The notes under the pieces were generated by a model. It was not told the DNA's origin, did no database searches, and saw nothing but the letters and a program-made list of their open reading frames with translations. Position numbers and translations under genes: made by a program. DNA of 64,000 bases from Psammoneis japonica (Eukaryota), in the NCBI GenBank assembly GCA_008632985.1, contig QPGO01000239.1, forward strand, positions 1 to 64,000, written 5' to 3'. Of the stretch, positions 1-54,590 are shown one piece after another; positions within the stretch are counted from its first letter, which is position 1, and every line of letters begins with the position of its first letter.

Positions 1-12
1 GGGGCAACTCAC

Positions 13-546
13 ATGATGAAAGCAACAACAAAAAGGTTTGCAACAGCAGGGCACCCCTTTTGCAAATGCGCCAAGCCCACAAGATGGAAGTTCAAGTGGA
101 TGATGGACCTGGGAATTCAATGTGTCAACAAAGGCATTGGCGTGGATTGGATGGACACAAATGACCAAACCAAAAAGCCAAAATGGATCCAACAGAGGGT
201 GCACATGCCTTGCAGCTGTGGAGAATGCTTTTTCTGCAAACACGGCCTCACCTGTGGAAAGACCCATTGACCAAAGAAAGGGAGGAAGAGGCCTGTGTGG
301 GAGGAAGACCTTGTGCACAACAAGAAATCAACAAAGATGTTCAACCACAGCACAGATTGCCATGATTTTCATCAGGAAAAACAGATTGAACATGCCAGAT
401 GTGCAAGTTGTGCCACCTTGAGAAAAGGATGCCGCACATCTTTGCATGGCTGCAGGAAATGTGGCGAAGCAATTTGCAAAGCGTGTTGGCCAGATTGTGA
501 TCACCTGGGGCACATCAGGAACAGGTGGGCATTGCACAACATTTAG
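13..546 (+). mobile_element. Degenerate Cys-rich C-terminal fragment, possibly of a piggyBac-like transposase
   Basis: Consecutive frames give CSCGECFFC and CASC...GCRKCGEAICKACWPD, a CxxC...CxxC...CxxC pattern like a transposase cysteine-rich tail. No catalytic core or TIR is visible, and some Cys may be mutated Tyr. Confidence 0.3.
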
Positions 547-1034
547 CGAGCAACAAACATTGGTGCAATGGGCAACAACATGGCTTCCTTTGATGACAAA
601 ACAATGGCTTGCCTGCATTTGTCTCTTTGCCCCCCAGCCAATGACATGCAATCATCAGCGTTGGTGACAATCTCAATGAATTCTTGCACAAGAAACAAAC
701 AGTTGTCAGTGCACTGTGCGAGCCATGAATGACATGCGCCAGCAGCAAGTGATTGTTTGACCCACATGTCACACCGGCCAGACTCTTGCACATTTTGGGA
801 CACACCCTGGAGTTGATGCCGGGATTGGCCAATTTGCCCATGGAGGAAATGTGGGTGGGATTGCAACCCACCACACCTGGCAAGGGACCCATTTTGGGAA
901 AGTCACCATGGGAAAATCTCTGTTTGGCAGGCGGATGTTGGAGAAATGGAGTTTTGTTGGCACCCAAAAATGGGACAACTCTTGGCAGTGCTCTTGGCCA
1001 ATTTGGAATTGAAGCATGACAATGTGGACTTGTT

Positions 1035-2357
1035 GGATGCCTTCTCCTGGGATTGCTTCACTTCGGCCGAGGGTGGCAAAGCGTTGGCTGCCAGTGCTCA
1101 GTGCGCCGCATCCATGCATCCCACTCATCAACACGCCACGGGTGTCAGAGTGTCAGCATGTCGGCATTGGTTGGGACCAAATTGGGTGTCTGTTCTGATG
1201 CCACGTTGGCAGCACAAGAACGAGAACAAGATTGAAAGGCGCTGTGGGGTGCGGATGGAACTGAGGATGATGCTTTTGAACGTGCATCATGGTGCTGTGG
1301 TTGTGCGTTGGTCCCACCACAACTGTCAGAGCATCAACAGTCATTGTCAAAATGACCAATTGTTTTGGAAATGACAGGCATGCTCATTGTCTTTTACAGC
1401 GTGGTGCTGAGGTAAAACATGTTCTTTCGCATTCGAGAATGCAGATGATTTTTTGAACATCAAGGGTCGTCAGACGATGTTGCGGGATGAGTTTTTTTTT
1501 TACATTTGTTTTTCGTACATTCACTTTGTTGTCTGCATTGTCACTTGACAAACTGCAACACTTTCAATGCAGTCTAGCTTCACCTCTCTTTCTCCAGCAA
1601 AGCTGGAGTTTTTGGTGAACCTCAAATGCACACTTCGCGCGCATTTGGAACCCACGCCATGACTCAATGCATTTTTCATTCTTTTTTGTTGCAAGTCTTG
1701 GATCCTCTGGAACTTTCAACAGCCAGTGACGTCTGCTGTGCTCACAACTGTTGAAACCTCCGATTTTGATTTTTTTGGCTCAAAAAACAGCCTGCGGCAC
1801 TGATGGGCAAAAGCAAAAGCTCACATCATCAAGCTTTGCATGCTGGGCAACTCTTTTAATGAGATTGCTGTTGCACCAAGGGCCACTTGTACATTGGATG
1901 ACCCCGAAAACAGGATGCCTTCTCCTGGGATCACTTCACTTTTGCCAAGGGTGGCAAAGCATTGGCTGCCAGTGCCCAGTGCGCTGCATCCATGCATCCC
2001 ATTCATCAATGCACCACGGGTGTCGGCGTGGCAGCGTTGGTTGGGACCGGATTGGGTGTCCACTCCGATGCCACGTCGGCGGTGCAAGAATGAGAACAAG
2101 ATTGAAAGGCACTGTGGGATGCAGATGGAGCTGAGGATGATGCTTTCGAATGTGCGTGGTGCTGTGGTTGTGCATTGGTCCCACCACAGCTGTTAGAGCA
2201 TCAACAGTCATTGTCAAAATGACCAATCATTTTGGAAATGACAGGCGTGCTCATTGTCTTTTACAGTGCAGTGCTGAGGCAAAACATGTTCTTTCACATT
2301 CGACAATGTAGATGATTTTTTGAACATCAAGGGTTGTCAGATGACGTTTTGGGATGA
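1035..2357 (+). repeat. Direct duplication of ~450 bp (about 1035-1489 and 1913-2357)
   Basis: Both copies run from GGATGCCTTCTCCTGGGAT to TTTTTTGAACATCAAGGGT..GGGATGA; differences are mainly transitions. Confidence 0.9.
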
Positions 2358-4924
2358 TCAAGTGTCATTGTCCAATGCTGGCACACTGGTCGTCAAGGAG
2401 GGTCAGGGAACATCAGCGACCTTTTGTGATCTTGGATGCAACAATGATCAAATGGTGTGCCTGTGAAAACAGCCATGAGTGCTGGAACCATTCTGTTGAG
2501 GATGTGAAACAAAGAGGGAGTGCACTGTGCTCAAAGAACGAGTGCAAACAAAAGTGGAATCAAGCATGAAAAGTGAAAATCATGAGATTTATTTCTGCTC
2601 AATCATTTTGGGTTTCTCTGAATGGGTTCTCAATGGCCTAAAGCATTTGCACTGTTCCTGCAGACAAGAGGCCTTTCGGAGAATAAGATCATGACAACAG
2701 ATTGTCCGGGTGCGATTGACATTGACACACAAGATGTCAACATCATCGTATGATTGCATTTGTGATTTTCGGCATCCGATCAATTCTGTGTGATTGATCT
2801 GTCCTTCGTGCGAACCCATGATTGACGTGCGATTGAAGCACAAACTCATTTGATGTGTGGATGTGCGAACATGTGATGCCAATGTACATGACAACGCATG
2901 TTGCAGGAGTGTTCTCCCCACTCATGAATGATGATGATTCATGTTGGCAAACAGCCCCACAGCACCAACTTTTGGCTTGTTGTTTCCAGCGTTGGCTGCT
3001 GCCACAGAGAGAAAAGAGAGTTGAATGAGGAGAGACAAAGAAACATGGGAGTTCCTTCTGTGATTGAAACCTTGCAAGCATGAGCCTTCATCATGGTGCT
3101 GTCACGGCATTTGCATGATGCGCACATCACAGTGCCGAGGCACAAATGACATGCGCCAGCAAGTGCTGCCGAGGTGTGAAATGAAATGCAGTGAACAAAG
3201 AGACAAAAACACAAACTCACTTTTGAAAAAACAACAAATCTTGCGCTTTTGCCCCCCATCCACAATTTAAATCCATCAGCGACAAACACAAAAACTGTTT
3301 CCAAATGTTCTTTCTAAAAGCAAGAGCAATTTCTTAAAATTGGTGTGCATCCTTGCCATTCCTGCAGCAGTCTAGTGTCAGCATTGACACCTGAGTGCAA
3401 GCAAAAAGCACTGCTGTGACAGTCCACTGCCTTGCCATCAATGGTGCTCGCTGTTGATTCTGTGCAACAAATGGCATGAAATGTGTTGAGCAACAAATGA
3501 CAATGCAAGAGACAACAATGTGACTTGCTTTAATGCCAAAACATGTCCCGCCCCCCTTCCACAGTTCAAACCACAATGCACAATTCACAGCTGCAATGTC
3601 TCAAACAGTGGCGACAACAGTGTCCTTGTGAATGCAGTCAAATTGCAGCAGCAGAAGAAGCAGCAATTGCAGTGAGCACATGAATGGAATCCAAAATGCA
3701 ATCAAACAATGACTGGCATCATGAACCATGGTGGCTCTGTCACAATGGCCAACGCAACAACATTGTCACAGCTGTTGGCATTGCCGCCGATGTGGTGTGT
3801 GGTGGGTTGTTGTGAAAAAACATGTGCGTCCACACGCCATGCAAAACAATCCATTCCAATCTGTTCTGGCAAACAAAGAGTTAACAGCAGAGCTGAACAC
3901 AGCACAGGAAGCTTCCAAGTCAGCCCTGCTGCCTTTTCAGCTGCAAATGCTTGACCTCGGGGATCTTTTCGCCGACGCAGAGCTGACGGAGTTTGCAATC
4001 GTGACTGCAGCTGCAGAACTGGCCATCAGAGAGAACATGATGCTCATTGATGATTTGACCATTGAGGCACCCAACATGCCATTCAAGGTTCAAAACGCAG
4101 TTGTGAGCCAAGTTTTGGGAAGTGATGGCAGCGATGGAAGCGCGCTCTCTCAACACAAGTCGGCGAAACACAGGCAGCGTCCATCAATGAGCTGGAAGCT
4201 GTTTCATGCACCATGTCAAATTCTCCAACACTTGCCTAAGTCCCATGCTTGGATGCTGAGCCAAGAGGTGCATTTGGGCTGGAAGCATTGGCAGACATGC
4301 TCACAGATGAAGAGTGGGCTGGAGCGGCCAATCTCACTTCAAACGAAACCAGGCAGATGCTGCTCTCCTTGCTCACAGGCATGTTGGCCCAAGGATTGTT
4401 TTCCATTGACACAGACAATGCACTGCCAGTGGAAGCTGCAGTAGGACTTGCCGTGGTTTCATTTGCAAAAGGTGCATCATTTGACACGAACCGCCAGTCA
4501 CTTGCACTTGCTCCAAAACACCAGGCGCAGATCATTTGACCCATGGGAGACAACAGAAATCTCCAGGAACTCCTCGAGATAAGCTGAGGCCTCTAATGGC
4601 AGCATCGTGGGAAAAGTTGTTGCAATTTCAGCAGAATCGTGAGAACAAGCGACAACTTCTGTGCCATCAAAACAATTTTGCTAACGTGGGCGCTTTCGAG
4701 CTCCTGCGACATTTTGCTCTCCCCGGAGGTTGTACTCCTAACGGCGCGTCAATTCAAATTGAAGCGCTTGTTGTTGGTGGTCTGTTCTGTTGTTCTCGGT
4801 TCTCGGTTTCGCTCTTCCTTTCCACAGCAACCCTTTTTCGAAACATAGTAAATCCAGTCAGCTGCATGACGAAGAAGGAAGGAATCAACTAAAAGTAACT
4901 TGATGATTTATCGCCCTCGTTACA

Positions 4925-6271
4925 ATGTCAGACGCGAGAACCGAGGAGGACGCGTGGGCAGCGGCCGCCGCGGCCGCCGACAATGGTAGAGGCATTCAAC
5001 TTCGATTTGTTAATTTGAACAGCGACACCGAGATGAAACAAGTGTGTGACGCCTTGGGTGTCGAAGGAATAGGTCCAGTTTCCCGTTTGCGGGCCTACAT
5101 TGATCGTCTCAAGACGGAGCATCATCAGCAGAACAAGCGGTCGTTGTTACCACAAATCTCCGCCGAAGGCGCCGCCGCTATTGAACAGATGGCAATTGAG
5201 TACGTATCAAGAAAGAGAACGATTGTACTATCTGGAGCATCGAGTTCTGCGAAGAATGACCTAATGGATATGTTGAAGTTGCCTGAGAAAGGGTCTATTT
5301 GGCAAAATAGGTCTAATGCTATTATGCAAGACGCGGACATGTTTTCGTGGTTTCGAAGCAACGAAGATTCGGACGAGAATCGCCAGGCATATATGGCTCA
5401 TCTGAAGGTCCAGCTACAACTACCAGAGGGCTACACGTTGGCAGATGTGCAGCCGAATCGATTTTTGCTGTCGGTAGAATTCCTTGGAGAAACCAACGAC
5501 GGTCGAAAGATAAACGGAACTACGGATGTTGTCATAGCAAGATCGGAACACGTTTATAGTGGCGCAGTTCGAAACAATATTGAGGCAGTGTTTGAATTGA
5601 AGAAGCCCGAGAACTTGAAAGAAAAGGACCACTCCCCGCAAGCGGTTGGTGAACACTTTGCTGCGTCGTACTTGAATCCTGATTATCCGGTCGTTACCGT
5701 TTTGACAGATTTACAGAGCTCATGGACTTTCTTTTGGTTCGCACAAGCAAACAACTCCGGAGATACAGCGCTCTACAGGATTCGTCTCGAGGACGCAAAC
5801 GCAGCAGCAGAAGCAAAATATATACTGCGTAGCATTTTCGTTCAAGTGTCTGGGAGCACACTCCCTGCAACCTTTGCGAATCGAATTTCGTTCCAAGCTG
5901 TTTTGGATAATATGAACCGTAAAAAGAGAGCACGGCAGGAAAGCGGTCTCAGCGACAGATTCTCAAAGGGCCAGGGAGATTCGGGGTCCTCTGGTGGGGC
6001 TAATGATTCCACTCCAGCAACTGGACCAAACAGCCATACCTCTTCGTGGGGTGGGAGTGCAACACAACCGAAAAATCATGGCATGGGTAGTGGAATCGCT
6101 GGCGACAAGGCTCCAGCGAGCATGGCTGACCAGTTGAGTCTCTTTGCGCCTCCTGCACAAAGAGATGTAGCGAATGAGCTGGATCTGCTGGATATGGTGG
6201 ACGAAGCCGAACAGTATGAAATCGTCCGTTCCTTTGCTTTGAAATATATTGTGCCCTACATGAGAGGCTAA
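4925..6271 (+). CDS. Crinkler (CRN)-like protein with PD-(D/E)xK restriction-endonuclease fold
   Basis: 448-aa intronless ORF with normal composition; motifs GTTDVVI...VFELKK...QAVGEHFAAS...VVTVLTDL...WTFFWF resemble CRN C-terminal REase domains. Confidence 0.65.
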   Translation: MSDARTEEDAWAAAAAAADNGRGIQLRFVNLNSDTEMKQVCDALGVEGIGPVSRLRAYIDRLKTEHHQQNKRSLLPQISAEGAAAIEQMAIEYVSRKRTIVLSGASSSAKNDLMDMLKLPEKGSIWQNRSNAIMQDADMFSWFRSNEDSDENRQAYMAHLKVQLQLPEGYTLADVQPNRFLLSVEFLGETNDGRKINGTTDVVIARSEHVYSGAVRNNIEAVFELKKPENLKEKDHSPQAVGEHFAASYLNPDYPVVTVLTDLQSSWTFFWFAQANNSGDTALYRIRLEDANAAAEAKYILRSIFVQVSGSTLPATFANRISFQAVLDNMNRKKRARQESGLSDRFSKGQGDSGSSGGANDSTPATGPNSHTSSWGGSATQPKNHGMGSGIAGDKAPASMADQLSLFAPPAQRDVANELDLLDMVDEAEQYEIVRSFALKYIVPYMRG

Positions 6272-6699
6272 TCTACAAATTTTGAAACATCGTTGTCTTT
6301 CTGTTATACTTTCTTCTCCGTACCTTATCATTGATACTGGTACAGAAGTTCTTCATTCAATCTGTGATTTTCATTGCGTTGGGCCTCCATCCTTGCGGAC
6401 GGTAGTTCCGTTTCTCATCAGTCATTGCCGATGAGGAGAAAAAAACCGTTTGTTCTTGTCCACCGATACATCTTTCATTGCCATACGTATACGGTGTGTC
6501 TCTAGAAAAGCAGCTGGCGCCGCTGACTACACGCTTTACATACCCCCAATCCCTTCGTCGATGATGTCGAATGTGTCAAAATGTGTTCTTGAGTCATCAA
6601 AATCTTCTGGCTTCTTGGCAGTGCGCGATGAACGGAAAATAGTCGGATCTCGACAATGACACAGCAGGGCCTAGCCCTATAAGGGAGTGCCACATTTGG

Positions 6700-9600
6700 G
6701 ACCTTCCCTTCTTGACGTCATGACCTCCTGGAGAGAGCTCGAGCCTGGAGCACCCAACCTCTTAAGATCGAAGTCTTCAGACCTCAACTGAAGTCAGCAA
6801 ATGTTCAGCAAACCTGCGTCAAGCTGGATGTCAAATGACCTCACTCTTTTAGGATTGACCTGTGTAACCTCCGTTTCAACCATGATCACCTGCTGTCCCC
6901 TGTGACATGTGGATCTAGACCATCTCTCAATTCCATGGCATTTTTGGTGTGCAAGGATTCAAAATGACCCACACGCAATCCTGCCTTTCTGAGCAGCTCG
7001 CAAAATGAGCAACCATGGCTCCACAATTGATGCCACATCAGCAGAGAGAAAGAGTCAAGAAGCCCTCAAAGCATTCAAAAATGGATGGACACAAGAAGTT
7101 GAAATTAGATCCAACTCTGTTGTCATTTGTGAAGAAATGGAGTTCAACAACTTGCACATTGATCCAGTGCTTCCCAAAGGCTTGTCTGGCTGCATCATCA
7201 TCAATCAGCCATTGGTCCTGCCAAGCCAACGTGTGCCTGAAAAAGTCCGCTTTCCACATGTCACAATGGTCACCATCAAACTCACATGAAATGGTGCTGT
7301 TGTTGCTTCCACTTCCTGATTTGCTCTTCCAGCTGACACCACACAGCAGTTGTCACCTTGGCAATTGCAGAAGCCATTGGGCATGTGGCATTGCCAGGAT
7401 TCTTGTGCTTTTGTTTTGCTGCTGATGCTGCTGTTTCTCACCAAGACATCCATGACAACACTTTTGATTTCAATGCACCTGTCAACAAAGTGAAAACTTT
7501 CTTTCCAAAATCATTCCCTCGTCAAGGCTGCTTTGAAATGTTGAGAAGCAATTGTGTGTGATGTCTTCCAAGTTGCTTCTCTTGGTTGCATTCTTGATTC
7601 CAAGTTTCCTTTTGTTGAAAGAAACCAATGTGTTTTGTTGCGAAAGCCATCAAAACATTGATGGTGTTGCACATGTCAAGCTTCGACAATGATTTTGAAG
7701 CCCAGCTTCATGTGTGCAAACTTGATGCGGTCAACTGGTTGGACAAACTCTGTTGAGCTTCTGTTTGCAAGAAGGGTGAAATGGACCACACTAGATAAGG
7801 CTGTGCAGCATGGAAACAGTGCCAACATGGATGCTTGTGCACACTGCATGCGTGTTGTGGGTTCCAGCTTCTAAAAGCTGACGGAATGGAAGGATCATGT
7901 TCTGTCCCTCCTTGCATCATGCTTCAGTTTCCTCCTCAATGAGGCCATCTGCAGCTTTGTGCCTCTTTCCTTCTTTTTGCATGAGGTGGGCTGGGACCAT
8001 GGGCAGGGTGGTGTGCTGTTTGTGTCCTGCTGGCAGGGGAGAAGCTGGTGCAGTGCAAAGTTGCCAAGAGGACTGACTTCAAACCTGTTGTTGCTTGTCG
8101 ACATTGAAACCACTTTTGTGGCTTGGGTGGTTCCAGAAGAGGCCAACTCTTTGTCTGACTGCATTCATTCTTGCTGTGGTTTGCAACAGGACAGGGACAA
8201 CAATGCCACCAATGTTTTGTTTGCACTGTCGTTGTTTTTTTTTGGCGCTGGGTGGAGCATTTTGGGTTTCCTTGTGCACTGTTGTTGCTGTTCATTTTCT
8301 GATGACAATCACACAAAATGTCAAATCACATTTTTGTGAGCATTTGATTCTTTGTTGTTGTCATCATTGTCATGATCATCTGCATGCATTTCATGTCCAG
8401 GTGGATTGGAAGAGGATGGGAGCACAGTGTTTGAAGACAGCACAGAGAGAGAGCTTGGAACATGGGTTGGACCAGGAGCTGAGGGCAGTGGATTGGCTCA
8501 GGGGGAGGTGGAAGAGTTGTTCACTGGTGAGTGGGATGCCATGCTTGGCACAACAGACAGAGTGGGTGAGGGAAGTGACAAGAGATGGAATGGTGGAAGT
8601 TGAGATGTCATGGCATCCAACACCACCAAGGGAGACTGGGAGGATGGTGCAGTTGTTTTGGTGAGGTGTGAAAGGAATTGAAGTGAATGGCCAACAATGG
8701 CGTCTGTGAAGGGAGAAGCCCATTCAAAGGGGTGCGGGCAGTTGGTGTCATGCACAAGGTTGCAGCAAATGTCTGCTGCTGCAAGGAGGTGTGTGATGGA
8801 TGGGATTGCGCATTGGTGAAATGAGGTGCTCTGAGTTTGTTTGTTGGTGAGTTGGGTTGCAAGGCAGCGGAGTTGCGCTTGGTGAAGGTTTTGGCTTTGT
8901 TCATCAGGAAGTTTGAAGCAAAGTCAGCAGAGCCAATTGGTTGGCTGAGAAAACGGATGCTGGTGGTGATCTTGGGTTGTGTGGCAGAGTTGTTGGTTGG
9001 GTTGAGGAAAGACAGGGCTTGGCAAAGGGCACTGGCATCAGCAGGAGAGAGTTCGTCAATTGGGGATTTGCAACTGATGGACATTAGGATCTTGGTCTTG
9101 GATTTGTTGAGTTTGACACTGCACCAGGGTTCAAGGTCAGAGGTGCATTGTGGGAACCATGGAACAGCAGAAAAAGGAAGGAAGGCATGAGTGTCATCAA
9201 TGCAAGAGGAGGTGGCTGACTTAGAGCAGGCTGTGAGGCATTGATGAAGCTCATCGTTGACAGGTTTGAAGATGCGGGCAAGGACAAGACATGAAAGGGC
9301 TGGGCTCAAGGGGCAGCCTTGGGTGAAACCTTCATGTTGGAGGAAGGAGGACCAGTTGAAAGGGGTGATCTTGATGCCAGCAAACATTGGGATTTTGGCA
9401 TGGGATGTCAAAGAGGGGGAGGATGGGCTTGTGGTCATTGGAGGAGACTGGAGCATCATCTCGACAGGTGTCTCTGGAGCATTTGTTGAAGCAGTTGGTG
9501 AGATTGAGCAGTGCCAGAGCCCTGGTGGGGGTGGTGTTGGGGTTGAAGAAGCACTCAATCTTGACACAGGTGGTGTCGGTGAGGCAGTTGAGACCACACT

Positions 9601-11240: not shown

Positions 11241-11398
11241 GCGCTCGTAAGAAAACGAGAAAGAGAAAAAGATGGCCCCTTCTCAGTCGTGCGTGTGAGT
11301 CGTGTGCGAGCGGCGGCGCTCATGACACGCTCATGTCACGCAAGACGTCGTCGTCTCGTGTCAACATCATAACTGAAGATACGCCTTTCATTTCGACT

Positions 11399-16187: not shown

Positions 16188-16750
16188 CGTGGAGTCGTAG
16201 AAGCTCTCTCGTATGCGCGTAGAAGAAGGGAATGACAATGGAACGAGGCCTAGAGTTCAACGCCGTTAAGGGGAGGCAACAACGCGGTTGAGAATCATTG
16301 AATGCAATTGGACAGGAACGCCATGGTCAATCGTAGAGACGCGTGCACGATTCAAGAACTTACCGTTGAAAGAGACGAACGCAAAAACGCGATATGGAAG
16401 CGTGCTGTCGGAGCCGCTGTCGTCGTAGATGGAAGGGTTAGAAGATGAAATGCAACAGCCGAGTGTGTTGCCGATCTACAGAGTACGGGTTGGGAGTCAA
16501 TGACAAGAGCTGTGGATGCCGTCGTTCGTTGCTTTCTTTGACGAGGAGTCGTCAATGCACAAGAATCAGAATTGTGTGCTCGTTCCAGGACTGCCTTGTT
16601 TTGCATCGTTTGAATCCCTTCCACATCTTTGTACCAAGCACCCCGTGAGCTTTTACGAGTGCCGTGGGTTTCAGTATATAACCACGTTCATTGCCGACCT
16701 TGGTTTCTCAACCTGGTACAAAATCGCGTGGAATCTACGAATTCCGGCGC

Positions 16751-42200: not shown

Positions 42201-42379
42201 GCAGACTGACACATGGCTGAAAAATGATTTGTCAAGCCACAAAATGCATTTGATCTCCAAGAAGTGCAGTCCAGAGCTGGGGCAAGGGGCACTTTGTTTT
42301 TGACTGTGCAGCTCCATCCACCTCCTGATGTCAACAAAACTGGCAAGTCCAGAGACACACTGGCAAACTGAGCTGGCTG

Positions 42380-43020: not shown

Positions 43021-43615
43021 TGGCAGCATCACAGACGGTTGATTTTTGTGCATGTGAAGCTGGCATGCTGCAGCAGCAACACCAGCTCTGTTCTGAAAAG
43101 AGCAGCTTCTGCAAGATGGTTCAGCAAGAACCATGCACTTTGGTCACAATTGATCCAAGATCTCGCAAGACAGGGTTCGTCTGTCCTCAAAAGCCGGTGG
43201 CAGGTTGCTTTGGAGTTACAAGGTCAGAACAAGCAGACACAACAAAGTCGGAATGAGTGGACAATGCAATGTGCTCATGTCGACTGATGACATGTGGGTT
43301 GGAAGAGCTCTGCCAGATTGGTGTGTTGTCCACCCAAAAGAGGCAAAGTTCAGAAAGACATTGTATGTCGTGACATGAGTCGACGCGAGATGATGAAGTC
43401 TCTGGCCGGCACCTGGTGAAAATTACATTTGATTATTCGACTGACATTACACTGTTGCACCACATTTTCTACTAACTAGTTAAAGCACATACAATATGAA
43501 GCCGTGCACTTCCCGAGCGGAAGGCGAGTATGGTAGAGGACAGAGGAGACACCACAGAGGAGGTTTCCACTTGCCACCTTATTCTCAATTCAGCTTCAAT
43601 ATCTTAGGAAACCTG

Positions 43616-46292
43616 TTACTTGCATCCACCACACTCCCAACCATGGGCACGTTTATGCTTGGCAAACGAATTGGGAATGCATTTTTCAATACATCTACCG
43701 AATGTCTCCGTCTTGAGCGTCACTCCATCCAACACACCGAAGAGAGTCGAGCAGCTTTCCTTATCCGTGCACACGGAAACAACGGACTCATCCGGCACTC
43801 CGTTGTTGTTAGTGTCATTACTCAACCCACAGCTGGCATATTCACTACAAAGTCCCCCGAGAGCTGAGCATTCAATATCGCAAATATCGGGGATACCATT
43901 GTCGTTGAAATCCGTGTATTCTGATGCTTCCAACCACACTCCCTGTATAATGTTCGATTCTCCAGTAGAAGAAGCAGATGACTGTATCGAATCTACTCCT
44001 GATTCTTCTCCAATGTACCAGAAGCGGACAATCCCATTTCCATCAGTGCGACAGTCAGCGGGATCACAATTGACGGTCGCACCAGCATTTGGGCCTGAAA
44101 TTACATCGATATTTACTAACTTGCCTGCTACAACCTCTCCATCCATACGATATGTGACGAAGGCTGAAAGAGTGCCTCCCTCTTCTTGAGCACTAATCTC
44201 TGGAGACATGGACAACGGAAGAGGATCACGGACGGTGAGGGCACAGTCCGCTGTTAGCACCGTGCCCATCACACCAACCGTGACAAGTCTTTGCCCACCC
44301 CCAAGGTCAGAAGGAACGCGGACCCTGAACTCGGCGATACCCGATTCATCCGTCAATCCGGTAGCGACCATACGATCACCAAAGAACACCTTGACCTTGC
44401 TACTCTCCGTCAATTCCCTCGCTTCTAGAATCACAAAGTCCCCAGGATCAACAGGATCTGTTGTTTGATCTTCTGAAGTCAATAAGCAAACCGGGAACGT
44501 GGGTGTCTCAAAAGGGCGAAGTGAATAAGAATCTTCACCTTGAAGATCATCCGGCATCCTATCCGTTTCTACGATTTCGTCATCTGTTTTCAAAGTAGCT
44601 ATTGCCTGGACGCGAACCGTTGACTTGAGAGATCCACCAAGAAAACTGTTTGGTACTGTGAACAAAATGGTGTCGCGCTCATATGTCTCAACATCACCGT
44701 CCTCGGTGTCGTCGACTGACCATACGGGGAGTATGCGAGCACTGAAGCCACAAAATTCTTGTCCATGGCATTTATCGACAAAAACGCCTGTTGTTGCATT
44801 GTATTCAAATATTTTGTCCAACTGCGATGAAGAATACTCGCTCGTCAAGGAAGTGAAAACAAGCACAAACTCGGCCGACTCGAAAGAAGATTCAATTTCG
44901 AGATCTGCTGGCTTCCCTCCCGTGGCACTGTATCCATCCGCATCCAAAACGATGGCGTAAGTACGATTCTCAGTGCCAGATTCAGTTTTCTTAGTAACAT
45001 ATTCAGGAGTTGGCGGTTCAGGGATCTTCCCGAGAAGCTCCAGTAGAAAGAATGTAGTACCTGTCTCGACGTTTTCAGAGATACGGAGATGGAAGAGATC
45101 AAGGGGTGCATCATTGACGTCAAGAACATTATCCCATCTACCATCACCATTTACTGGGGACGGGATCAACACTCCTGGAGGGTCAATGGTTGCTCCATCG
45201 AAGGCACCAGCGGTCGCGCGAGCCTTTCCTCGTTGAAGTGCAGTCATGTCCCTTGACTGTGGGTTCGAAGCATCACAGCAACTGCTGGAAGACATGAAAG
45301 TCAATGGGGTAGCGCATCGGTCTTCGCTGGAATCGCAGCCGTCGAAGGGCCCATCGCTGTCATTATCCACTCCATCGCCATGGTCGAGTTGAAGAACGTG
45401 GCCTACAGGAATGTTAGCGAAACAGTGTGAATTGAGAATGACATACTTGCTTTTACAATACTTTGCCTACGAACTTACCAATTTCATGAGCTGTTATGCG
45501 CTCATTCGTTTGATCAAATACAACTTCATCTCCAACACAACCACTAAGTTGAGTGAATCTCTGGTTATCCCTTATCCAGACAAAGCCTCCAGAATTGTAG
45601 GTTACCACTGGTGGATTACTACAGAGATCTCCAGAGAAGCTGGCTCGTTCAGAAGTGCCAAACAGGGTCGAGGTTGTACCATCAAGGTTTACCCATCGAC
45701 CCAGATTGATAGCAACCACGCCTCCTGGATCCGTAACATCGGCTTCATCGTATAGATCCTCCCATGCTTGTACGCACAATGTCCTAACCAGGTTTCTTTC
45801 ATTGTTGCTATCAAGTTGGCGCTTCGTTACATCTCCAAGATCTCCTGGACACCGCCCACCACAATCGGTCGGACAAGCCTGAGTGGAACACTGAACTCCA
45901 GCATCACAATCAGGAGAGAGCCCCGATGCATCTGGGGTGCATGAGAAGCCTTCGTTGGACCCGCCTTGGCAGAGGGTAGCAGTGGAAGGAGGGCATGGGT
46001 CCCGGATGATAGGGAATCCGATATTTCGAAGTCTGGCTACCGCTGCGCTTCGCAATGATATATCTGCTTGAGGCATATAGATTCGATCAGTGGCGCGCTC
46101 GTGTCTTCGCCAAAGTACTGCATTGTGATCAGGCTCGGGCATCATGTTGTAAGGATTGAGAGGCGCGTTCCCAGGCGTCACAACAGCAGGACTGCCGTCA
46201 ACTGCACACCACTTGACTGGAAGGAAGATGGTATCACCAGCATGCGCAAAAGCAACCAGGGAGGTGACTACCAATGCCACCAAGATCTTCAT
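43616..46292 (-). CDS. Secreted metzincin-type zinc metalloprotease with Ig-like C-terminal domains; intron 45403-45478
   Basis: Signal peptide MKILVALVVTSLVAFAHA; splicing yields ITAHEIGHVLQLDH (HExGHxxxLxH) followed by a Met-turn-like LTFMS; Big_1-like segment (VNIDVISGPNAG...TDGNG.VRFWY) and DxNxNGIPDxCD repeats. Confidence 0.85.
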
Positions 46293-47029
46293 ACCGGTAT
46301 TCTCTCTGCAGAAGAATGGGGCAAAGGGCAAGACTGTCAGCGTCGATGTACCAAACGAGTTAGTGGCAAAGTCAAACAATGGATTCATAGAGACTTCCGT
46401 GGATACGTAAAGGCTCAACATGTGTGGCATAAGAGAAAATTGCATTTCTCCTGTTGTTACAGAGATTGTCCCTCGCAGCGATGATGACACAAAACAACAA
46501 CGTTCCATCAGTGAGCAGTGAGCGGGGCTAAAACGCACAATAATCGGTGACGTGAAGTCTTTTCCTACATAAGCACAAAGAGGCCTGGGCAAGGGATGAT
46601 GCATTTTGTTCAAAGAAAAGGTTGTTGCTTACCTCTGAGCTCTTGACGCTGATCCTTGGTGACAATTTTTTGTGCGGCGCATTGAAGCAAAGAGTTCGTT
46701 TTGTTCTCGCGATGATTCTACGGTTGACTTTGCTTCAAGTGCCACCTAACGATCGCTTGGAAGTATCAATGAAAATATATATGGATGACATTGTCATTGC
46801 ATTCAATTTACAACTTCATGCTCGTACAACACAGTAATAGACATATCGATGATCGCTTGCCGTTCGTACATAACGAAAATGACGGCGGAACCGTTAGCTC
46901 GCGGATTGGGTGAGGCCGGCGTACGCGGCGCTGGCGTTGAAAATTTAAAATTAAAAAGGCGCGCGACCAACGAGACAATGAACCCACCCCATGTCAAAGT
47001 CAATCGCGCTGCAGTGTAGGGCTATCTTG

Positions 47030-50000
47030 AACTCCTTGCAAGATTTTCAATGGTCTTGTTGGACATGGCATCCTGTTTGATCTCTTGCAGTGCATCAGGC
47101 TGTGGTGGCCCCACTCTGCCTCTCTGTCTTCGGTCTTTTGCAGCTTGTTTCTGCTGTGTGTCGTGCAGTTTCCAGAGAGCTGGCACACGTCATTCTTGGT
47201 TGGCTGAAGATGGCCCAGCCACCCTCCACTTTCATTGCAGCTGGCAAAAAAAGCAGTGTCTGCCTGCACCTTTCTCAAAAAGAGGAGGCAGACGGCAGCT
47301 CTCAAAATGGCTGCAGCAGATGCCCCAAATCTGCCAGATTGCACATCCTGTCCCAGTTGCTCCCAAGCCAAATCTCTTTTCTGTGTTGGAGCAGTTGGGC
47401 TGAAGCAAAAACACACCCATTGCTCCTGCAGGCAGTGCAAAAGCACCATCATCTCCAGCTGTGCATCCCAAGAGATCAGCCAACAATCAAAATCCATCCT
47501 TCTTGTTGTTGCCTTTTGTGCAGAAATGATGCTTTTCTGCGTGAGACCCAGTGGTCTGTACAGCAGTCATGTCTTGCCTCTTGGACATCCACCCACTGAT
47601 GCGTGCCACCAACATTGCTCTCCCATGAGGCCCAGCAGCAGCCTGGGGGCTCTGGGTTGAGCACACCACCTCTGTTTGCTTGGCTGCAGTGGTGCCAAGG
47701 CCTTTCCAACAACTTTGCCAGCTTCCAATCTTTCCAACACTCAACCCATTTGCTCCCACATCTGGGTGGTCACATCAAAGCAACAAATGATGACAAAGCT
47801 GGGGCAAGAAGTGTGTGCACACATGCAGCTGCTGGTGTGTTCTCACCACCATTGCTGCTCCACTGTGCAAAAGCACCAAGTTCTTGAGCATCCAAGCACC
47901 AACCAGCCCAGCCATGCAACACCTTTTCAAAGCACTGCCATGTCCTGGTTGGAGTCAACAAAATTGACATGGATGGAATGGGAGTTGGAGTGGACATGGG
48001 GCACAAAGAGCTGGGTTGCAAGAAGCTGCCAGCAACTGGACTGGGAAAGAAGAAAGGGGTCAGAGTTTGCATGGGAAATGTGTTGGATTCGTCCTTCCCG
48101 TGAGACTCACAGTCAAAGGTGGCAAGGCTGGATCAAGTGTTGGTGGCTCTGCATCAGGTGGTGTGTGTGTGAGAGTGTGGAGACCCTGTGGACACACCAT
48201 GCACAATGCTTGCCAACTTCCCAAAAAACATTTTTTGTCTCCTGCATCAACACCTCTGGGCTGAAGGTCTGCAGTGCCCAAGCCACCATCATTTTCATGT
48301 GGTCAGTGTGCTGAGTGGGCTAAAGAAAGTGCTCTTTTGGCTGCAACATTGTTGTTGCCCTCAGCTGTGCATGTGGCTTTTTGGCCACAAATGACTTGCA
48401 ACAACAACTCAGAATTGTTTGTTCTGAACACTCATGTTTGCAAGCTCAAAGGAAGGTGACTTTAACATTTTGTGCTCCAAATGCTGGCAACTTGTCTGGA
48501 GTGAGAGAAGCTGGTTGACTCTGTGCTCAGCTCCCCATCTGCCTGTCTCCTTTTTTCTTTTTGAGTTGTCTGCTGAGTGCAAATCAATGGCGAGCTTCTG
48601 TTGTGTCCTTTTGTGTCAGTGTTGGCATGTTCTTCCCTCCTCTGACTCTTCTGAGTGATCTTCATCTGCAATTGTTGGATCTGCCAGCGGTGTGTTGAGT
48701 TTCTTTCTTTCCACTCTTGTCAATTTTTGGTGTGGTCAATAGAGTGTCATTCTCCCAGCAGGTTTGAGCCCAGTTTGTGCAAGCATTTTTTGGTGAGCAA
48801 GCTGCCACTCAGCATCAGGTTTGTTCTTCTTTGTTTTGCAACCTGAGTTTGTTGCCAAACCATCTTGTCCTTTGCTGTTTTTCTTGTTTGTGCCTTTGCC
48901 ATGCATGGCACAAGTTAGTGTGTGTTTTTTTCTAGAACAAGCCCTGCTTCCTGCAGCACCAGTCTCTCTGTTGAGCCACTTTGTTGACAGCTGGTTCATT
49001 CTTTTCTTGTTTCTCATTTCATTTTGTTCTTGTTGATTGAGTGGGCTTCAGTGGCATTGAATCTGGCTGTAAATCATGCACCTCTGCCAACTTGTCGCCC
49101 TCCTCAAACTGAAAGGGAGAGTGTCATTCTCTCCCAGGTGCCTGATTTTTGCACAAAATTTGTGCAGAGATGTTCTTTGACTCTTGTTGTTTGTTGTTGA
49201 GCACAACTTGGGTTTGTTGCAGTGCCGTCGCATCTTGTCCTTTTCCTTTTTCTTGTGTGCATCTCAGTGAGAAGAATTGTCACTCTCTTTTCTTGTTGTT
49301 TGTCAAGCAATTTTGGTTTGTTGCAGTGCCATTTCTTCTTGTCCTTTTTCTTTTTTCTTGTGTTCACCTCAGTGAGAAGAATTGTTGTTGCTCTCTCCAC
49401 TCATGGTGGGATTTGTCCAGCTTGAGTCTCATGCATGCATGTGCCAGGTGCTGGACAGGATCTGCTTGTTCAATCCATTGCACATCAATTTACTCAGCAG
49501 TGACTCCATGTGTTTTTTCCTGCATTGTGCACACCTGCTGCATGCACCTGCACAGCAGGCGGCAGTGGATGAATTGGAGTGGTCACACCTTCCTCCATCA
49601 AGCCTTGCTTGTCCTCCATGGGAGCTGAGAGGTGTGTTGCCAGGGGGACAATCATGAAGAAGAAAATGAGGCATTGTTGCTGAGCATCTGTCTTCGGCCA
49701 CTGCACACCTGAGTCACTGCTCTCCAAGTTGGTCAACAATGGCAAAAAGCAGGATCTTGATTTTGCTGCCACAGGCACACATTTTCACTGCCAGATCAAA
49801 CACAAAAGTTGTGTTGATGTGTTTTGAGCCTGTTGTTAAGAAAGCCATGCTCTCACATGAGACCTTCATCAGGAACTTCTTGACTTCATTCAGCACCTCT
49901 TGCAACATCTCCACATGAGAAACAGGATAAAAAATTTAGAGCCAAGAGGGCTCTCCAGTGATTTGCTTGGCTGGGGTCTGAAGAGATGCACACAGGCAAC

Positions 50001-50440
50001 AAGGGCCTTGGCCAAATCGGGTGCTGGTTTGACTGTGTCTTGTGGATCCAGCAAATCCCAATGCATGCCCTTGCAGCAAGTCTTGTCACCACTTGTTGTG
50101 TGTTGACCACAGCTCTCAATGTGGCAAAATGAGAACATGGATCAGTGAGCAGCAGCCAGGGCTGGCTTTTGCTGTTGTGCAAGAAACAGACTGCTGGGGG
50201 GGGGGGGAAGCATGAGAAGGTGATGCCCAAAAAGCATGCTTCCAGCTTTTGCATTTGAAAGAGATGAATGTGGCAACTCACTGCTTTCACTTGATGTGAG
50301 AAATTGATGGGAAAATTGAAAGGTCTTTGTCTTGGTGATGTGCTCAACATCAAGCTGTTCATGGCTTGGGTGAATTGGAGCAGTGGTCAATGCTCACAAA
50401 GTGCGCACCTCATCCTCTTTTTGCGCTTCAGTTGTTGGTC
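47030..50440. other. Hypermutated block D, homologous to about 39.5-42.1 kb and partly 28.9-29.3 kb
   Basis: TpA/CpG depletion; shared anchors such as TTGTCCTCCATGGGAGCTGAG (about 41193 and 49609) and GCTCCCACATCTGGGTGG (about 40208 and 47752). Confidence 0.85.
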
Positions 50441-50818
50441 AAGTTAATGTCTGTCCACGAGCTTCTAGCAGTACGTAGAATCTTGCGCAAAGTTAAGTCT
50501 GACACGCTGGTTTTGGTCGAGGATAGTTCGCGTTTGAGTGGAATGTCGGCATGTCCGAGGACAGCTAGCATGCAAATGCACACTGATCTACGAAATTTTT
50601 GCTAGAGTGGAGGATGAAGGGTAGATCGACGCGTAGCTGAAAGATGATTTGTCGAACGACAAACGTATAGTGTTGAGAGCCAGGGTAAGGGGCATTTTAT
50701 TTTAGAATGTGCAATTCCTTCTACTTAATGTCGACAAAACTGTCGAGTCCGGAATCAATGCAGGTAAACTAAATCGGCTGTCTCTAATGAATTCGAGCCG
50801 CTCAAAATATACAAAACT

Positions 50819-53098
50819 CTACAATTCGGCAGAGATGCTCTCTTTCATCCCCTCCATTCGTCCGCCGGCGTCTTCATAAGCATTAAACGCTTCTGGTTGT
50901 TCATCATTCCCCATGATTTCCGCTAACAGCTCCGCCTCGAATTCGGCCGCCTCGTTTCCTAATCCCTCTTCACTCAGCCATCGTTCTGCATCCAAGGCAG
51001 CGGCTGCACCACTACCCGCACTCGTAATGGCTTGTCGATAGACGCTATCTGAAACATCACCGGCTGCAAAGATGCCTTGGACAGACGTTCGTGTACTGGT
51101 TCCAATTGTTTTCACGTATCCAGGATGATTCTCATCGAATTCGACCACGCCTTTCAAAAAGGAGGTGGACGGAGTATGTCCAATAGCAACAAATACCGCA
51201 TCACAAGCGATCTGACTTTCTTCCTTGGTTTGAACATCCGTCAAAACAACGCCAGTGACAACCTTTGGCTGCTCAGTGTCGAGGTCCACGTCGTCGCTTT
51301 CTCCATCTGTTGACTCCACCGTCTTTCCCAAAATTTCCTTAACTGTGGCGTTCCATCGAATGATGATAGAGGGGTGTTCAATGACTCGCTGAGCCAGCAC
51401 TTTCGACGCCCTAAACGTATCTCTTCGATGAATCAAAGTGACAGACTTAAATAAAGAAAGGAAGAGGTTGGTCAATGATTGCTTTTCCAGGATAAATCCC
51501 CTCCGAGACTTTTCTCGACAATAGCCTTACCTTGCTGGTTCTTGCCAGGACAAGCGCATCCTCCATGGCAGCGTCACCGCCACCAACAGCACAGACATTC
51601 TTTCCACGAAACACAGCACCGTCACAAGTGGCACAGCTACTTACGCCTCCACCACGCATTTCCCACTCGCCAGGGACACCCAACCAGTTGCTTTCCGCAC
51701 CAGTAGCAACAATGATGGAGTGTGTTTCAATGACAGAACTGTTGGTGACAACCTTAAACGGTCTTTTGGAGTCATCCACGGAAAGAACGGTTTCTGCCTC
51801 AAACTTGGCGCCCCATTCAATCGCCTGTTCACGCATTCTCGAAATGACACCGGGCCCGGTAATATTAAACAATCCAGGATAATTCTCAACATCCACACCC
51901 TTGCCCTGCAGCTGTCCACCCATGGGCGGTGCCACGACAACCGGTGTCAGTCCAGCACGAGCAGCATAAATGGCTGCAGACATGCCCGCAGGTCCGCCTC
52001 CGATAATGGTGACTCGCTCCGGAAAATCTCCCGGACTCCAACCATGTTCAAACTCCGCATCGTCGTCATCCTCTTCTTCTACTTGTTCATCCACTTCGTC
52101 GTCAAGACGCTTTTCCAATTCACGCATAAGTTCCTCCTTTGTTGCTAAATGCAAATTGGCCTTGTCTGGTTTCGCGTTTTTGGTGGAAGCATCCGTCTTT
52201 TCCTCTTGCTTCTTTTCTCCTTTTGCTGCCGGTTTTCGGTCCTCGGCCGAAAAGCGCTCCACAGTCTTGGGTACTTTGCCATACTTTTTCTTTAACTTTC
52301 TCGTCAATTGATTCGCTGCAGCTCCTACACAATCGGTCGTTTTGGTCATGTCGGCACACTTTTTGTAAACCACCTCAATGGCCTCTCGCGTCTTGGTAGC
52401 ATCCACTTGTCCATAATACTCCACTAGTTCCTCTTTTGACAAGACCACATTTTCTAATTCTGCTTGTCGAATCACTTGTTGTGTCATTTGTTTCAATTGC
52501 GCTTCGCCCGCTCCCGAAAACTGATTCACCTTTTTGCCTCCCAAAAAGTACACAAAGGTCGGAAGCGATCGAATCTGATATTTCGATGAAAGTTCGTACA
52601 TGGCGTTGGTATCCACCTTGACAAACACAGCCTTGTCCTGCCCGACTTGCTTTGCTAAATTCTTAAAGACTGGAGCCATCATGCGACAAGGACCTATAAC
52701 GTTGCAAAACGATTAATATAAAACAGCTCAGCATGAACATAATCTCGAATCTCGGTACAGAGTCAACAACAATAATAAATTTTAACGGGCCTTACCACAT
52801 CCGTCAGAGTAGAAATCGACAATCACGGGCAAGCCCGTTTCAGTGGCATGCTTCTTAAGGAGTCGTTCGAATTCTGTGTTGTGTGAATGAGAGTATTGCA
52901 ATTTTGTTTAGTTCAAGAGGCGTTCGAATTCTTAGAAACAGCATGTTCCGTCGTTTCCTTCGATTTCAATCAAGCTAATCATGCACAAGTCAGTTTCTTA
53001 CCATGTGTAGAGCGAATATGACGAACCAGTGGACGTGCCGAGACAATGCTTAACACTATCAACAGCACAAGAGCCGCAAACGGCCGCGGCCTCATCAT
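50819..53098 (-). CDS. Thioredoxin-NADPH thioredoxin reductase fusion with signal peptide; exons 53098-53002, 52873-52796, 52693-51531, 51445-50819
   Basis: Three GT-AG introns keep frame; Trx site VDFYSDGCGPC is split by intron 2; NTR motifs IIGGGPAG, GVSSCATCDG, VGGGDAA, HRRD, GIFAAGDV and QAITSAGSG. Confidence 0.93.
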
Positions 53099-53369
53099 GG
53101 TCGCTGTCATTTTTTGTTTATGACTGCCGAAAATTCGGAAAGACTCGTTGCGTAGAACTCAGTACTAAATTTACGTGGGGTGTTGATAAGACACGTGGAA
53201 GCCTGTCGCTCTTCCACGTAAGATTGGTGGCGGACACTTCGTACTGTAGTAGTAAAGCGCGAGTCGTGATTCACGACAAACGGCAAAAAGCACGAGCACG
53301 TGGGCGGGGCAGTGCAGAAGGCCGGGACAAACAACCCGAAAAGTCGGATTGCTCACCTGCAATGATGAA

Positions 53370-54590
53370 GTTGCCAACGTTGGAGGAGACAAGAGATGAA
53401 GATGATGCAGGGTTTGACAGGGGCCTGGCCTCCTTGTCTGCTTTGGCATGCACCATTTTTGTGTGATGGGGAGACTGCCTCTTGCCTCCGGTTGTGGTCT
53501 GCAACTGTGTGGGTTTGACTCTTCTGCAAACAACATGCCACATTTGACACTTGCAGAGTGCAAACTGCATGGAAATGATGCCTGCAGCTGTGGACACTGT
53601 GTGTTCCCCAGCTGAGGTTTGACCCACAAGAAAAAAGGGAAGGGGAAGAGGAGGGGGCACAAAGCGTTCCCAAGCACCAGCAGATGTCGTGCAAGGAGGA
53701 GAGCCAGACACAAAGGGCTTGACAGGTCTCACATCACATCAACGATCATTTGGAGCAAACTCAGGGAAATGTTCTTGACAATCTGAGCTTTCTCTAAGTT
53801 TGTGCATTGTTGATGGCCATGCTGCTGCTGTTGCGAGCCTGTCCGGGATGCTCGGCAGGCAAAATGCCAGAGTTCGTGGGCAGCTCTGCTGCAATGACCC
53901 TGTGTTTGACTCATTGCATGGAAATGTTCTCATGGGTTGTTCTTGCAATGCTGACTTTTAACACTTGCACCAACATTTTCTGCTCATCACACAGCATCAC
54001 TCCTTTTCTCTGCTGGCAAAATGGCAAAAATTCTTTTTCCAACAAGAGGTGGTGCTCAAAGTTGCCTGGCACAGCTGTTGACACTCTGCCAAACAGAAGT
54101 GTCTTCATTGGCTCCAACAGCCAAGAAGCTCTTCCAGTGGCACCAACAAGCACTGTGCACAAGCAGATTTGAGAAAACTTGAAGTTGTCTGTCAAGCTTG
54201 GGGCAGAGCTTGGTTTTGGAAGATCGCTGCTGGTGCTGGCTGCGCAGCACATGTGAGAGACAAATGAAGAAAGAAGTGGAGGCACACACATGAAAAAAAA
54301 TTCTTGCCATTGTGTTCTTTGACACTGTGTGCACACAGACAAGAGTGGACAGGACAGTGTGCTGAGCTTCTTCTTCTTCTTCTTCTTCTTGATGACATGG
54401 AAAAAGCTGAGGGCCTCATTGGGGCAAATGTCACATCCAAAGAATTGAACAACAGTGGCTGCAAGGGCAGTTTTATCCTTGTTCAGTCTGCAGCAGGCGG
54501 CCTGTGTTCATGCAGCATGCCAACCGGGCAGACGACACAGGCTGATGGTGACATGCTGCCGTCAGAAATTTTATGCGAGAAGCTTCATTC
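53370..54590. other. Hypermutated block E (1.2 kb, origin unidentified; contains (CTT)n at about 54368-54390)
   Basis: Abrupt loss of TpA between two normal genes. Confidence 0.8.

Follow-up and report, generated by a model that had tools for sequence, protein, structure and literature searches.

The window analysed here is a 64,000-nt stretch of the diatom Psammoneis japonica (GenBank assembly GCA_008632985.1, contig QPGO01000239.1, positions 1 to 64,000 of the forward strand). It contains an intact thioredoxin/thioredoxin-reductase fusion gene, a dead copy of the last exon of this gene, a glycosyltransferase-49-like (GT49-like) open reading frame (ORF), a degenerate reverse-transcriptase ORF and five blocks in which the dinucleotide TpA (5'-TA-3') is nearly absent. 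A sequence-only reading had proposed that TpA was erased from these blocks by a targeted A>G/T>C process with a preference for TAY, or RTA on the other strand (R, purine; Y, pyrimidine), acting beside the decay of 5-methylcytosine (5mC) at CpG.

Five blocks depleted of TpA and CpG

The blocks were called by a two-state hidden Markov model (HMM) on TpA across the window. Their positions and contents are as follows.

1-4579: block 1, with 24 TpA and 108 CpG; CpG loss is partial, with CpG-depleted sub-blocks at 1-1063 and 2156-3957
6917-11369: block 2, with 17 TpA and 61 CpG, both depleted
27121-43363: block 3, the largest, with 65 TpA and 146 CpG; the CpG-depleted core is 28697-43368, and 27121-28696 shows TpA loss only
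47024-50444: block 4, with 11 TpA and 18 CpG; the mutated part of copy B (by blastn), directly downstream of the intact thioredoxin-reductase gene
53254-54571: block 5, with 3 TpA and 26 CpG

Within these blocks 120 TpA remain in 30,014 bp (4.0 per kb), compared to 1,348 in the 33,986 bp outside (39.7 per kb); each of the segments between blocks carries 36.8-40.2 TpA per kb. CpG amounts to 359 inside (12.0 per kb) and 1,977 outside (58.2 per kb). Observed/expected (o/e) values were calculated with separate, hand-set blocks and were 0.06 inside versus 0.58 outside for TA and 0.19 versus 1.02 for CG, and TG and CA reached 1.76 and 1.85 inside versus 1.14 and 1.16 outside. Depletion was seen only at TA and CG and excess only at TG and CA; AT, AA/TT (1.22/1.21 inside, 1.19/1.15 outside), GC and G+C are similar on both sides. 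The excess of TG and CA is partly owed to the loss of CpG. In 1-kb windows, the five stretches show TpA o/e of 0.00-0.12, CpG o/e of 0.02-0.24 and TG+CA of 1.64-1.94, and elsewhere TA o/e is 0.34-0.84 and CG o/e about 1. All 14 windows of 29001-43000 have TA o/e of 0.01-0.09 and TG+CA o/e of 1.79-1.94. Both the HMM and the o/e counts confirm the five blocks poor in TpA and CpG with a large TG/CA excess that the sequence-only reading had described. Its TpA counts were exact: 6.7-11.2 kb holds 20 TpA, 14 of them in YTAR and none in RTAY, and 28.7-43.3 kb is alike, with 54 TpA, 36 in YTAR and none in RTAY.

At most block edges the two losses stop together. The TpA and CpG edges agree to 5-41 bp at three edges (43363/43368, 47024/47008 and 50444/50403, respectively) and to 74-265 bp at four more. 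The joint loss of both dinucleotides that had been claimed therefore holds for most of the block DNA, but not for 27121-28696 and parts of 1-4579, where TpA is gone and most CpG is kept. In 27001-28000, TA o/e is 0.11 and CG o/e 0.86; over 27121-28696 about nine tenths of the TpA is gone and CG o/e is still 0.86 and 0.55. Since TpA is lost where CpG is kept, the TpA process is separable from CpG decay and is either faster or broader.

TpA is low throughout the window (o/e 0.58 outside the blocks), and the blocks are nearly without recognisable coding sequence: they hold 133 of the 232 ORFs of at least 90 amino acids in the window, and a Pfam match (E<=0.01) is absent for 131 of them, the two matches being the reverse transcriptase and the glycosyltransferase. 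Such features would be expected if there were no targeting at all, with a slow genome-wide bias from TpA and CpG to TpG and CpA and blocks that are simply old, unconstrained DNA, or if the elements avoided TA and CG by selection. However, the 8.1 kb outside the blocks that lie in no ORF of at least 120 amino acids have TA o/e of 0.76 and CG o/e of 1.10, and hold more TpA than the ORFs. As this non-ORF DNA is not depleted, a genome-wide neutral bias is unlikely, and the abrupt edges speak against one as well; the GT49-like ORF, described below, adds to this.

Systematic miscalls at modified bases are known from long-read platforms, and a sequencing, base-calling or polishing artefact was therefore considered. 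The sequence is contained in one DNA run, X1 (0.99 of sampled 31-mers matched), which may itself be the source of the assembly. Contigs derived from the X1 reads reproduce the blocks and span blocks and non-blocks at an equal word depth of about 65. One contig of 13,073 nt corresponds to 39384-52454, crosses two block edges and shows only 6 differing letters and 2 gaps. In addition, the mutated copies described below also carry transversions, indels and a frameshift relative to their unmutated counterparts, and where both paralogues are mutated each has a fixed outcome, TG or CA. The X1 contigs exclude assembly and polishing errors as the cause of the blocks, and an artefact of any kind is barely conceivable. 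A single N in the window, at 39401, is found a little past a multi-copy family of block 3 (described below), where the X1 contigs 39023-39406 and 39384-52454 overlap.

Direction, context and targets of the TpA loss

The TpA that remain in the blocks are found in particular contexts. Inside, 73 lie in YTAR, 42 in mixed contexts and 5 in RTAY, compared to 254, 688 and 410 outside (chi2 120, p 8e-27). When the block TpA are compared to outside non-ORF DNA only (114/223/130), the difference persists (p 4e-15), which removes the objection that avoidance of stop codons skews the comparison. Loss of TpA is thus not uniform over its flanks, and survivors in YTAR are enriched. We fitted an additive per-strand model, in which adenine is hit at a rate set by its 3' neighbour, to the survival of the 16 NTAN tetranucleotides. 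The rates were 2.52 for TAT, 1.87 for TAC, 0.85 for TAG and 0.30 for TAA (likelihood-ratio versus a single rate, p 7e-30). Consistent with the prediction of the model, YTGY is more frequent than YCAY among the products (p 0.0016). The preference for TAY/RTA is supported by the residual contexts and, more weakly, by this asymmetry of products. Survival of CpG was 0.09 in TCGA, 0.17 in ACGT, 0.28 in GCGC and 0.36 in CCGG, so that loss by the 5' neighbour of C follows T > A > G > C. Because the flank orders of TpA and CpG differ, one enzyme for both was rejected.

The context rule can equally be read as an order of the 5' neighbour of T (A > G > C > T). It might be, then, that thymine is attacked: a TET/JBP-type dioxygenase or another modifier would turn the T of 5'-RTA-3' in silenced DNA into 5-hydroxymethyluracil or 5-formyluracil, which mispairs with G and fixes T>C, and CpG decay would be separate or due to the same enzyme acting on 5mC. 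The outcome in the sequence would be the same as that of adenine deamination, and both lost steps start with a 5-methylpyrimidine followed by a purine. 5-Formyluracil gives A:T>G:C changes, and the 5-hydroxymethyluracil of dinoflagellates favours TpA. On the other hand, the CpG flank order differs from that of TpA, which leaves one enzyme reading one flank unsupported, and TpA is lost where CpG is kept. We know of no such modification from diatoms, and no search was made for it. Attack on thymine is the most credible of the alternatives considered here and still an unlikely one.

The direction of the changes was assessed with the intact thioredoxin-reductase gene and its copies, with the GT49-like ORF, which also shows their effect on protein, and with the relatives of the reverse transcriptase (further below).

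50769-52712, minus strand: intact, spliced thioredoxin/thioredoxin-reductase fusion gene (Pfam) in which TpA and CpG are normal and the last exon extends to 51445
40182-43026: copy A, a fully mutated paralogue of copy B at 47726-51444 (blastn)
about 42394-43019, minus strand: dead copy of the last thioredoxin-reductase exon, at the right end of copy A (tblastn)
26964-28301, plus strand: GT49-like ORF of 446 amino acids (Pfam PF13896, E 5e-34)

The best matches of the intact thioredoxin-reductase protein share 63-75% identity with it, and all named ones are from diatoms; no identical protein was present among the database matches. A contig of a second run, X2, skips 51446-51530, and the skipped 85 nt form a GT..AG intron on the minus strand. 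X2 is not on record as RNA and behaves like RNA in skipping this intron. It covers the thioredoxin-reductase gene and 54.6-56 kb, and within the blocks only about 39.3-40.0 kb; we did not use this coverage as evidence of silence.

When 75 ORFs from outside the blocks were compared to the blocks by tblastn, the copy of the thioredoxin-reductase exon was the sole match. It shows 58% amino-acid identity to the intact exon, one frameshift and 3 in-frame stops. Copy A was compared, over 619 aligned bases, to the intact exon, which is the right part of copy B and is unmutated. Every one of the 17 TpA of the exon is lost in copy A (8 to CA, 5 to TG, 2 to CG and 2 to TT), as are all 41 CpG (20 to TG, 17 to CA, 4 other). 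Transitions per base were 17/34 at TpA compared to 35/271 at other A/T (p 2e-6), and 39/82 at CpG compared to 21/218 at other C/G (p 4e-12), with 12/83 at CpA. The rates at TpA (0.50) and CpG (0.48) are as high as a single hit per step allows, compared to 0.13 for the remaining A/T and 0.10 for the remaining C/G. Sorted by the 5' neighbour of the adenine, A>G was observed at 17/34 TA, 9/89 AA, 9/85 CA and 17/97 GA. The exon thus gives the direction of the change, from TpA to TpG or CpA. GC-biased gene conversion was rejected, since only TpA is affected and not A/T sites generally.

These numbers bear on one of three candidates that the sequence-only reading had named, error-prone patch repair. 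Deaminated 5mC would leave a T:G or U:G mismatch, and long-patch repair by a pol-eta-like polymerase would miscopy T:A pairs in the vicinity, as happens in the second phase of somatic hypermutation. This would account for the edges that TpA and CpG loss mostly share, and errors of pol eta favour WA motifs (W, A or T), TA included. But WA also includes AA, and AA/TT is not depleted in the blocks; in the exon, A>G is at 9/89 for AA versus 17/34 for TA. Moreover, 27121-28696 has lost its TpA at CG o/e of 0.86 and 0.55, so that no prior deamination of CpG is needed. Of the three candidates this one fits worst, and we consider it very unlikely.

The GT49-like ORF shows the effect of the TpA loss on a conserved protein. 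The block edge at 27121 falls inside this ORF, and its 3' five-sixths lie within the zone that is depleted of TpA and keeps CpG. It encodes 3 Tyr, 33 His and 13 Cys. In an alignment with eight homologues, none of the 13 conserved Tyr columns (at least 70% Tyr) is kept: 5 are now Cys (TGY), 4 His (CAY) and 4 other residues. Of the other conserved columns 98/145 are kept (p 1.4e-6 versus the Tyr columns). The gene is probably dead, despite its open frame. As all conserved Tyr are gone and 98/145 other residues and most CpG are kept, the process must have had a high rate rather than great age, contrary to what old, untargeted decay would give. Selection for dinucleotide avoidance is ruled out by the destruction of conserved residues, and explains neither these replacements nor the stops in the exon copy. 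An explanation of the blocks that needs no targeting is therefore highly improbable. The near-equal numbers of Cys and His replacements indicate that the TpA process acts on both strands, as do the similar totals of TG (3,429) and CA (3,223) over all blocks: the duplex is hit on both strands. Two 176-nt direct repeats at 26359-26534 and 26792-26967 are 100% identical, 433 nt apart, TpA-rich and unmutated; they end 3 nt inside the GT49-like ORF, about 150 nt ahead of the TpA-depleted zone.

In the DNA where copies A and B are both mutated, 36/263 TG/CA steps are TG in one of them and CA in the other, compared to double transitions at 22/849 other steps (p 1e-10). The same ancestral steps were thus resolved independently after the duplication, and this shows that at least part of the change postdates it. 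In block 1, tandem copies of about 870 bp (1035-1490 and 1913-2357) are 47 transitions and 5 transversions apart, and 24 sites are CG in one and TG or CA in the other. The homology of copies A and B ends at the exon-intron boundary (43026 / 51444-51445) and is absent from the intron and the next exon. An end that matches the boundary suggests capture of the exon by whatever was duplicated. A simple retrocopy (processed pseudogene) was rejected as the origin of copy A, because neither the next exon nor the intron shares the homology. At 40241 and 41585, where the window keeps two residual CpG of block 3, the X1 contig has CA and TG; these differences are either polymorphism or continuing CpG decay, and they are the sole hint of recent change.

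A further target is the reverse transcriptase of block 2.

8611-9786, minus strand: degenerate reverse-transcriptase ORF of 392 amino acids without Tyr (Pfam RVT_1, E 1.6e-4, below the curated cut-off)

A search with this ORF found 121 relatives at E<=1e-3. All 35 of 35 metagenome loci encoding relatives have normal values (TA o/e 0.31-0.74, CG o/e 0.64-1.19), compared to 0.07 and 0.19 in block 2. The alignment has a single column in which 60% or more of the relatives share Tyr, and K stands at this place in the window. The ORF has C-I-D-D as its catalytic box, compared to Y/I/V-x-D-D in relatives; about half of the relatives shown have Y opposite its C, the others I or V, which is no more than suggestive. 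The relatives P0203, P0254, P0241 and P0224 have no or almost no Tyr and 8-11% Cys+His; P0203 is without and P0224 almost without Arg. They may be hypermutated copies in other assemblies, with the protein footprint to be expected from loss of TpA and CpG. Within block 2 the GC skew of the plus strand rises to +0.40 at 8001-10000 (G 0.31 and C 0.18 over the block). Deamination of one strand was rejected as its cause since G-C (0.133) is far above T-A (0.015); the skew is probably the element's own composition. The comparisons of the exon, the GT49-like ORF and the reverse transcriptase, together with the zone of TpA loss only, support the claim of a second, targeted A>G/T>C process apart from 5mC decay.

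A reverse-transcriptase remnant in a block raises the question whether the changes were made in RNA: ADAR-like A-to-I edits in retroelement transcripts would be copied into DNA upon transposition. A preference of ADAR-type enzymes for a 5' U is cited by Mettrop et al. (bioRxiv 10.64898/2026.01.13.699255, 2026). However, one edited RNA strand would give one product, and we find TG about as often as CA (3,429 versus 3,223) and Tyr replaced by Cys 5 and by His 4 times. Among the targets are one exon of the host, together with the flank downstream of it, and a host-type gene nearby; copies A and B were mutated in place and independently of each other, and the block edge at 27121 falls inside an ORF. 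It is hard to see how edited transcripts could give this pattern, and we give this explanation very little credence.

Other block contents and unmutated DNA

Most of the block sequence is single-copy by 31-mer depth. The duplicated block DNA consists of copies A and B, the tandem copies of block 1 and a multi-copy family at 37.3-39.3 kb in block 3, with a k-mer depth of 440-740 compared to about 65 elsewhere. Run X1 contigs of this family (37300-39300) have many variant joints and loose ends. A change from TpA to TpG or CpA can never create a stop in the genetic code, so the blocks are full of long, meaningless ORFs, and the GT49-like frame has stayed open. No viral gene was recognised in the blocks among the 133 ORFs compared to Pfam, at a decay too great for this to exclude a viral origin. 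No deaminase domain was found among the Pfam matches of the ORFs of the window.

Two unmutated islands between blocks, 4580-6916 and 43364-47023, carry long ORFs without a Pfam match at 4907-6271 (454 amino acids), 43616-45466 (616 amino acids) and 45453-46628 (391 amino acids), and a low-depth X2 contig lies at 43613-43808. Tandem arrays at 16747-17213 and 18378-18819 consist of units of about 155 nt (86-91% identity) and of 33 nt; both are unmutated, with normal TpA and CpG. The array of 33-nt units gives at least 11 register-shifted matches of a 112-nt reference.

Relation to known systems, agent and meaning

To our knowledge, before 2026 all known hypermutation defences acting on DNA deaminated cytosine. 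Fungal repeat-induced point mutation (RIP) changes C to T mainly at CpA and creates TpA. The RIPCAL abstract likewise describes RIP as C:G to T:A at CpA. The blocks resemble this RID/DIM-2-dependent process in that dinucleotide-specific transitions are made at the DNA level, which in fungi inactivate repeats and can leak into neighbouring single-copy genes. They differ in that TpA is destroyed by A>G/T>C and C>T occurs at CpG (39/82 per base in the exon versus 12/83 at CpA), and in that the process has spared short repeats outside the blocks (the 176-nt pair of 100% identity and the 155-nt and 33-nt arrays). In the sense of repeat-induced, the term RIP-like that the sequence-only reading used is at most tentative, as stretches with single-copy 31-mer depth are among the mutated DNA. 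Deamination of 5mC has the same signature as the CpG>TpG/CpA component of the blocks but cannot remove TpA, the loss of which extends here into DNA that keeps CpG. Hyper-editing by ADAR and mutation by APOBEC3/AID are likewise deaminase-driven defences against foreign or repeated nucleic acid, the deaminase being a candidate in our case. The substrate of ADAR is double-stranded RNA, with a preference for a 3' G, and the base deaminated by APOBEC/AID enzymes is cytosine; the blocks show in-place changes on both strands of DNA and a preference for a 3' pyrimidine.

The closest precedent is a chlorarachniophyte, Bigelowiella natans. According to the main text of Mettrop et al. (bioRxiv 10.64898/2026.01.13.699255), 231/302 nuclear mutations in mutation-accumulation lines fell into two silent viral inserts; 230/231 were A>G/T>C changes, every one of them at a TpA, and the rate of about 6e-7 per site per generation is about 1000-fold elevated. 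The hypermutation was found in some lines only. In the genome, the same text describes 124 clusters poor in TpA and rich in CpA+TpG, the footprint being defined by at least 3 consecutive 1-kb windows in which Rho is <=0.43 for TpA and >=1.52 for CpA+TpG, and an ADAT2-like deaminase is proposed. Like B. natans, the window shows A>G/T>C at TpA to TpG/CpA, there nearly exclusively (here 13/17 TpA of the exon became CA or TG and none was kept, and 9/13 conserved Tyr codons became TGY or CAY). Both have discrete regions, which in B. natans are transcriptionally quiet and can reach past the insert, and runs of 1-kb windows low in TpA and high in CpA+TpG, with 29001-43000 lying within the Rho thresholds. 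TpA-poor genes of B. natans are enriched in reverse-transcriptase domains, and block 2 contains one.

The two cases also differ. The host there is a member of Rhizaria, and here it is a diatom (Stramenopila). The targets in B. natans are giant-virus and virophage inserts, whereas in the blocks we recognise only the remnant of a retroelement, a family of repeats, a duplicated exon of the host and one gene of host type. The nucleocytoplasmic large DNA virus region of B. natans is half depleted (Rho 0.45), and the blocks are near saturation (0.06). The words 'CpG', 'flank', 'trinucleotide' and 'diatom' are absent from the main text on B. natans, and co-depletion of CpG and the preference of TAY over TAR are prominent here. 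Finally, the evidence from B. natans is de novo laboratory mutation, and ours is a historical footprint. By this comparison the blocks appear to reflect the same kind of process as the TpA hypermutation of B. natans, described once, in 2026, and now met in a new phylum. New are the flank rule, the coupling to CpG decay, the saturation and the non-viral targets, which include a neighbouring gene. Our literature search, which left most subscription journals outside its range, returned no report of TpA hypermutation in diatoms. This agrees with the sequence-only reading, which knew of no diatom description. Mutation accumulation in Phaeodactylum showed a GC>AT bias and mutable CG, CC and TG steps, and no TpA hypermutation in the matching passages of the report (PMC6604790).

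We therefore propose the following explanation. The five blocks would be chromosome domains that were run nearly to saturation by two context-specific transition processes, and in which the remains of a retroelement, a multi-copy family, a duplicated fragment of a gene and one adjacent gene are found. The first process would change 5'-TA-3' in DNA to TG or CA, on both strands about equally and in the order TAT > TAC > TAG > TAA; it would mostly spare the adenines of AA, CA and GA, and the limits of its domains would be sharp to within tens or hundreds of bases. The second would change CpG to TpG/CpA, share most of the edges and be slower or narrower. Of this, the comparisons above show which way the changes went, their context, their confinement to regions, a date after the duplication for at least part of them and the loss of conserved protein residues. 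The agent of the first is most likely an enzymatic adenine deaminase, probably of the ADAT/TadA type, that would turn A into inosine, read as G, and be recruited to silenced chromatin. CpG decay would stem from cytosine methylation of the same domains. The natural substrate of ADAT/TadA is the adenine that follows the invariant U33 in the tRNA anticodon loop (A34). An enzyme of this type should strike adenine after T, and in the exon A>G is indeed most frequent there (17/34 at TA versus 9/89, 9/85 and 17/97 at AA, CA and GA). CpG methylation of diatom transposons is documented in PMC9998398, where diatom DNMT4 enzymes group with fungal RID; by this analogy, DNMT4 may be a lead for the CpG arm.

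Several points weigh against this explanation or parts of it. All evidence comes from one 64-kb window, the ancestral TpA context of the blocks is approximated by the DNA outside them, and X1, if it is the source of the assembly, is not an independent sample. In the exon, A>G is fairly frequent at GA too (17/97), and the comparison of two copies cannot place a change in one of the two lineages. The predicted excess of RCAR over RTGR has the right direction and is not significant (p 0.16). The chemistry is deduced from its outcome: every A>G is at the same time a T>C of the opposite strand, and the sequence reads alike for attack on adenine and on thymine. A preference for 3' T or C is unlike the 3' G preference of ADAR. 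Position 35 of tRNAs with A34 is G, C or A and never U, so TAT, the strongest context, has no counterpart in tRNA. Taking these points together, a targeted TpA mutator of some kind is very likely. If the enzyme is counted as no more than the leading candidate, the whole explanation seems to us likely as well. That the mutator is in fact an adenine deaminase acting on DNA is a suggestion to which we give slightly less than an even chance.

Any mechanism must explain the order TAT > TAC > TAG > TAA, the action on both strands, the sharp edges common with CpG decay, the spread into a neighbouring gene that keeps CpG and targets that are not recognisably viral. The footprint also has consequences for annotation. 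As no stops are created, annotation will take the long open frames of such blocks for genes, and the change of Tyr to Cys or His will mislead protein comparisons. Transposons changed by the TpA process escape homology searches. Should an enzyme be at work, this enzyme would be a natural editor of adenine in DNA. A saturated footprint in a diatom, which stands on another branch of the supergroup and belongs to one of the most abundant and most genetically tractable groups of phytoplankton, suggests that the process is widespread. More tentatively, and with the balance of our judgement against it for now, diatoms might possess a defence that is targeted through chromatin, edits adenine in DNA and removes TpA, with TAY ahead of the rest, from silenced DNA, beside a C>T arm at CpG that is possibly due to the RID-like DNMT4, and this defence might be homologous to the system of chlorarachniophytes. 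If this were true, adenine-directed, RIP-like mutation would be an old innate genome immunity across the whole SAR (Stramenopila, Alveolata and Rhizaria) supergroup, and not the curiosity of one alga.

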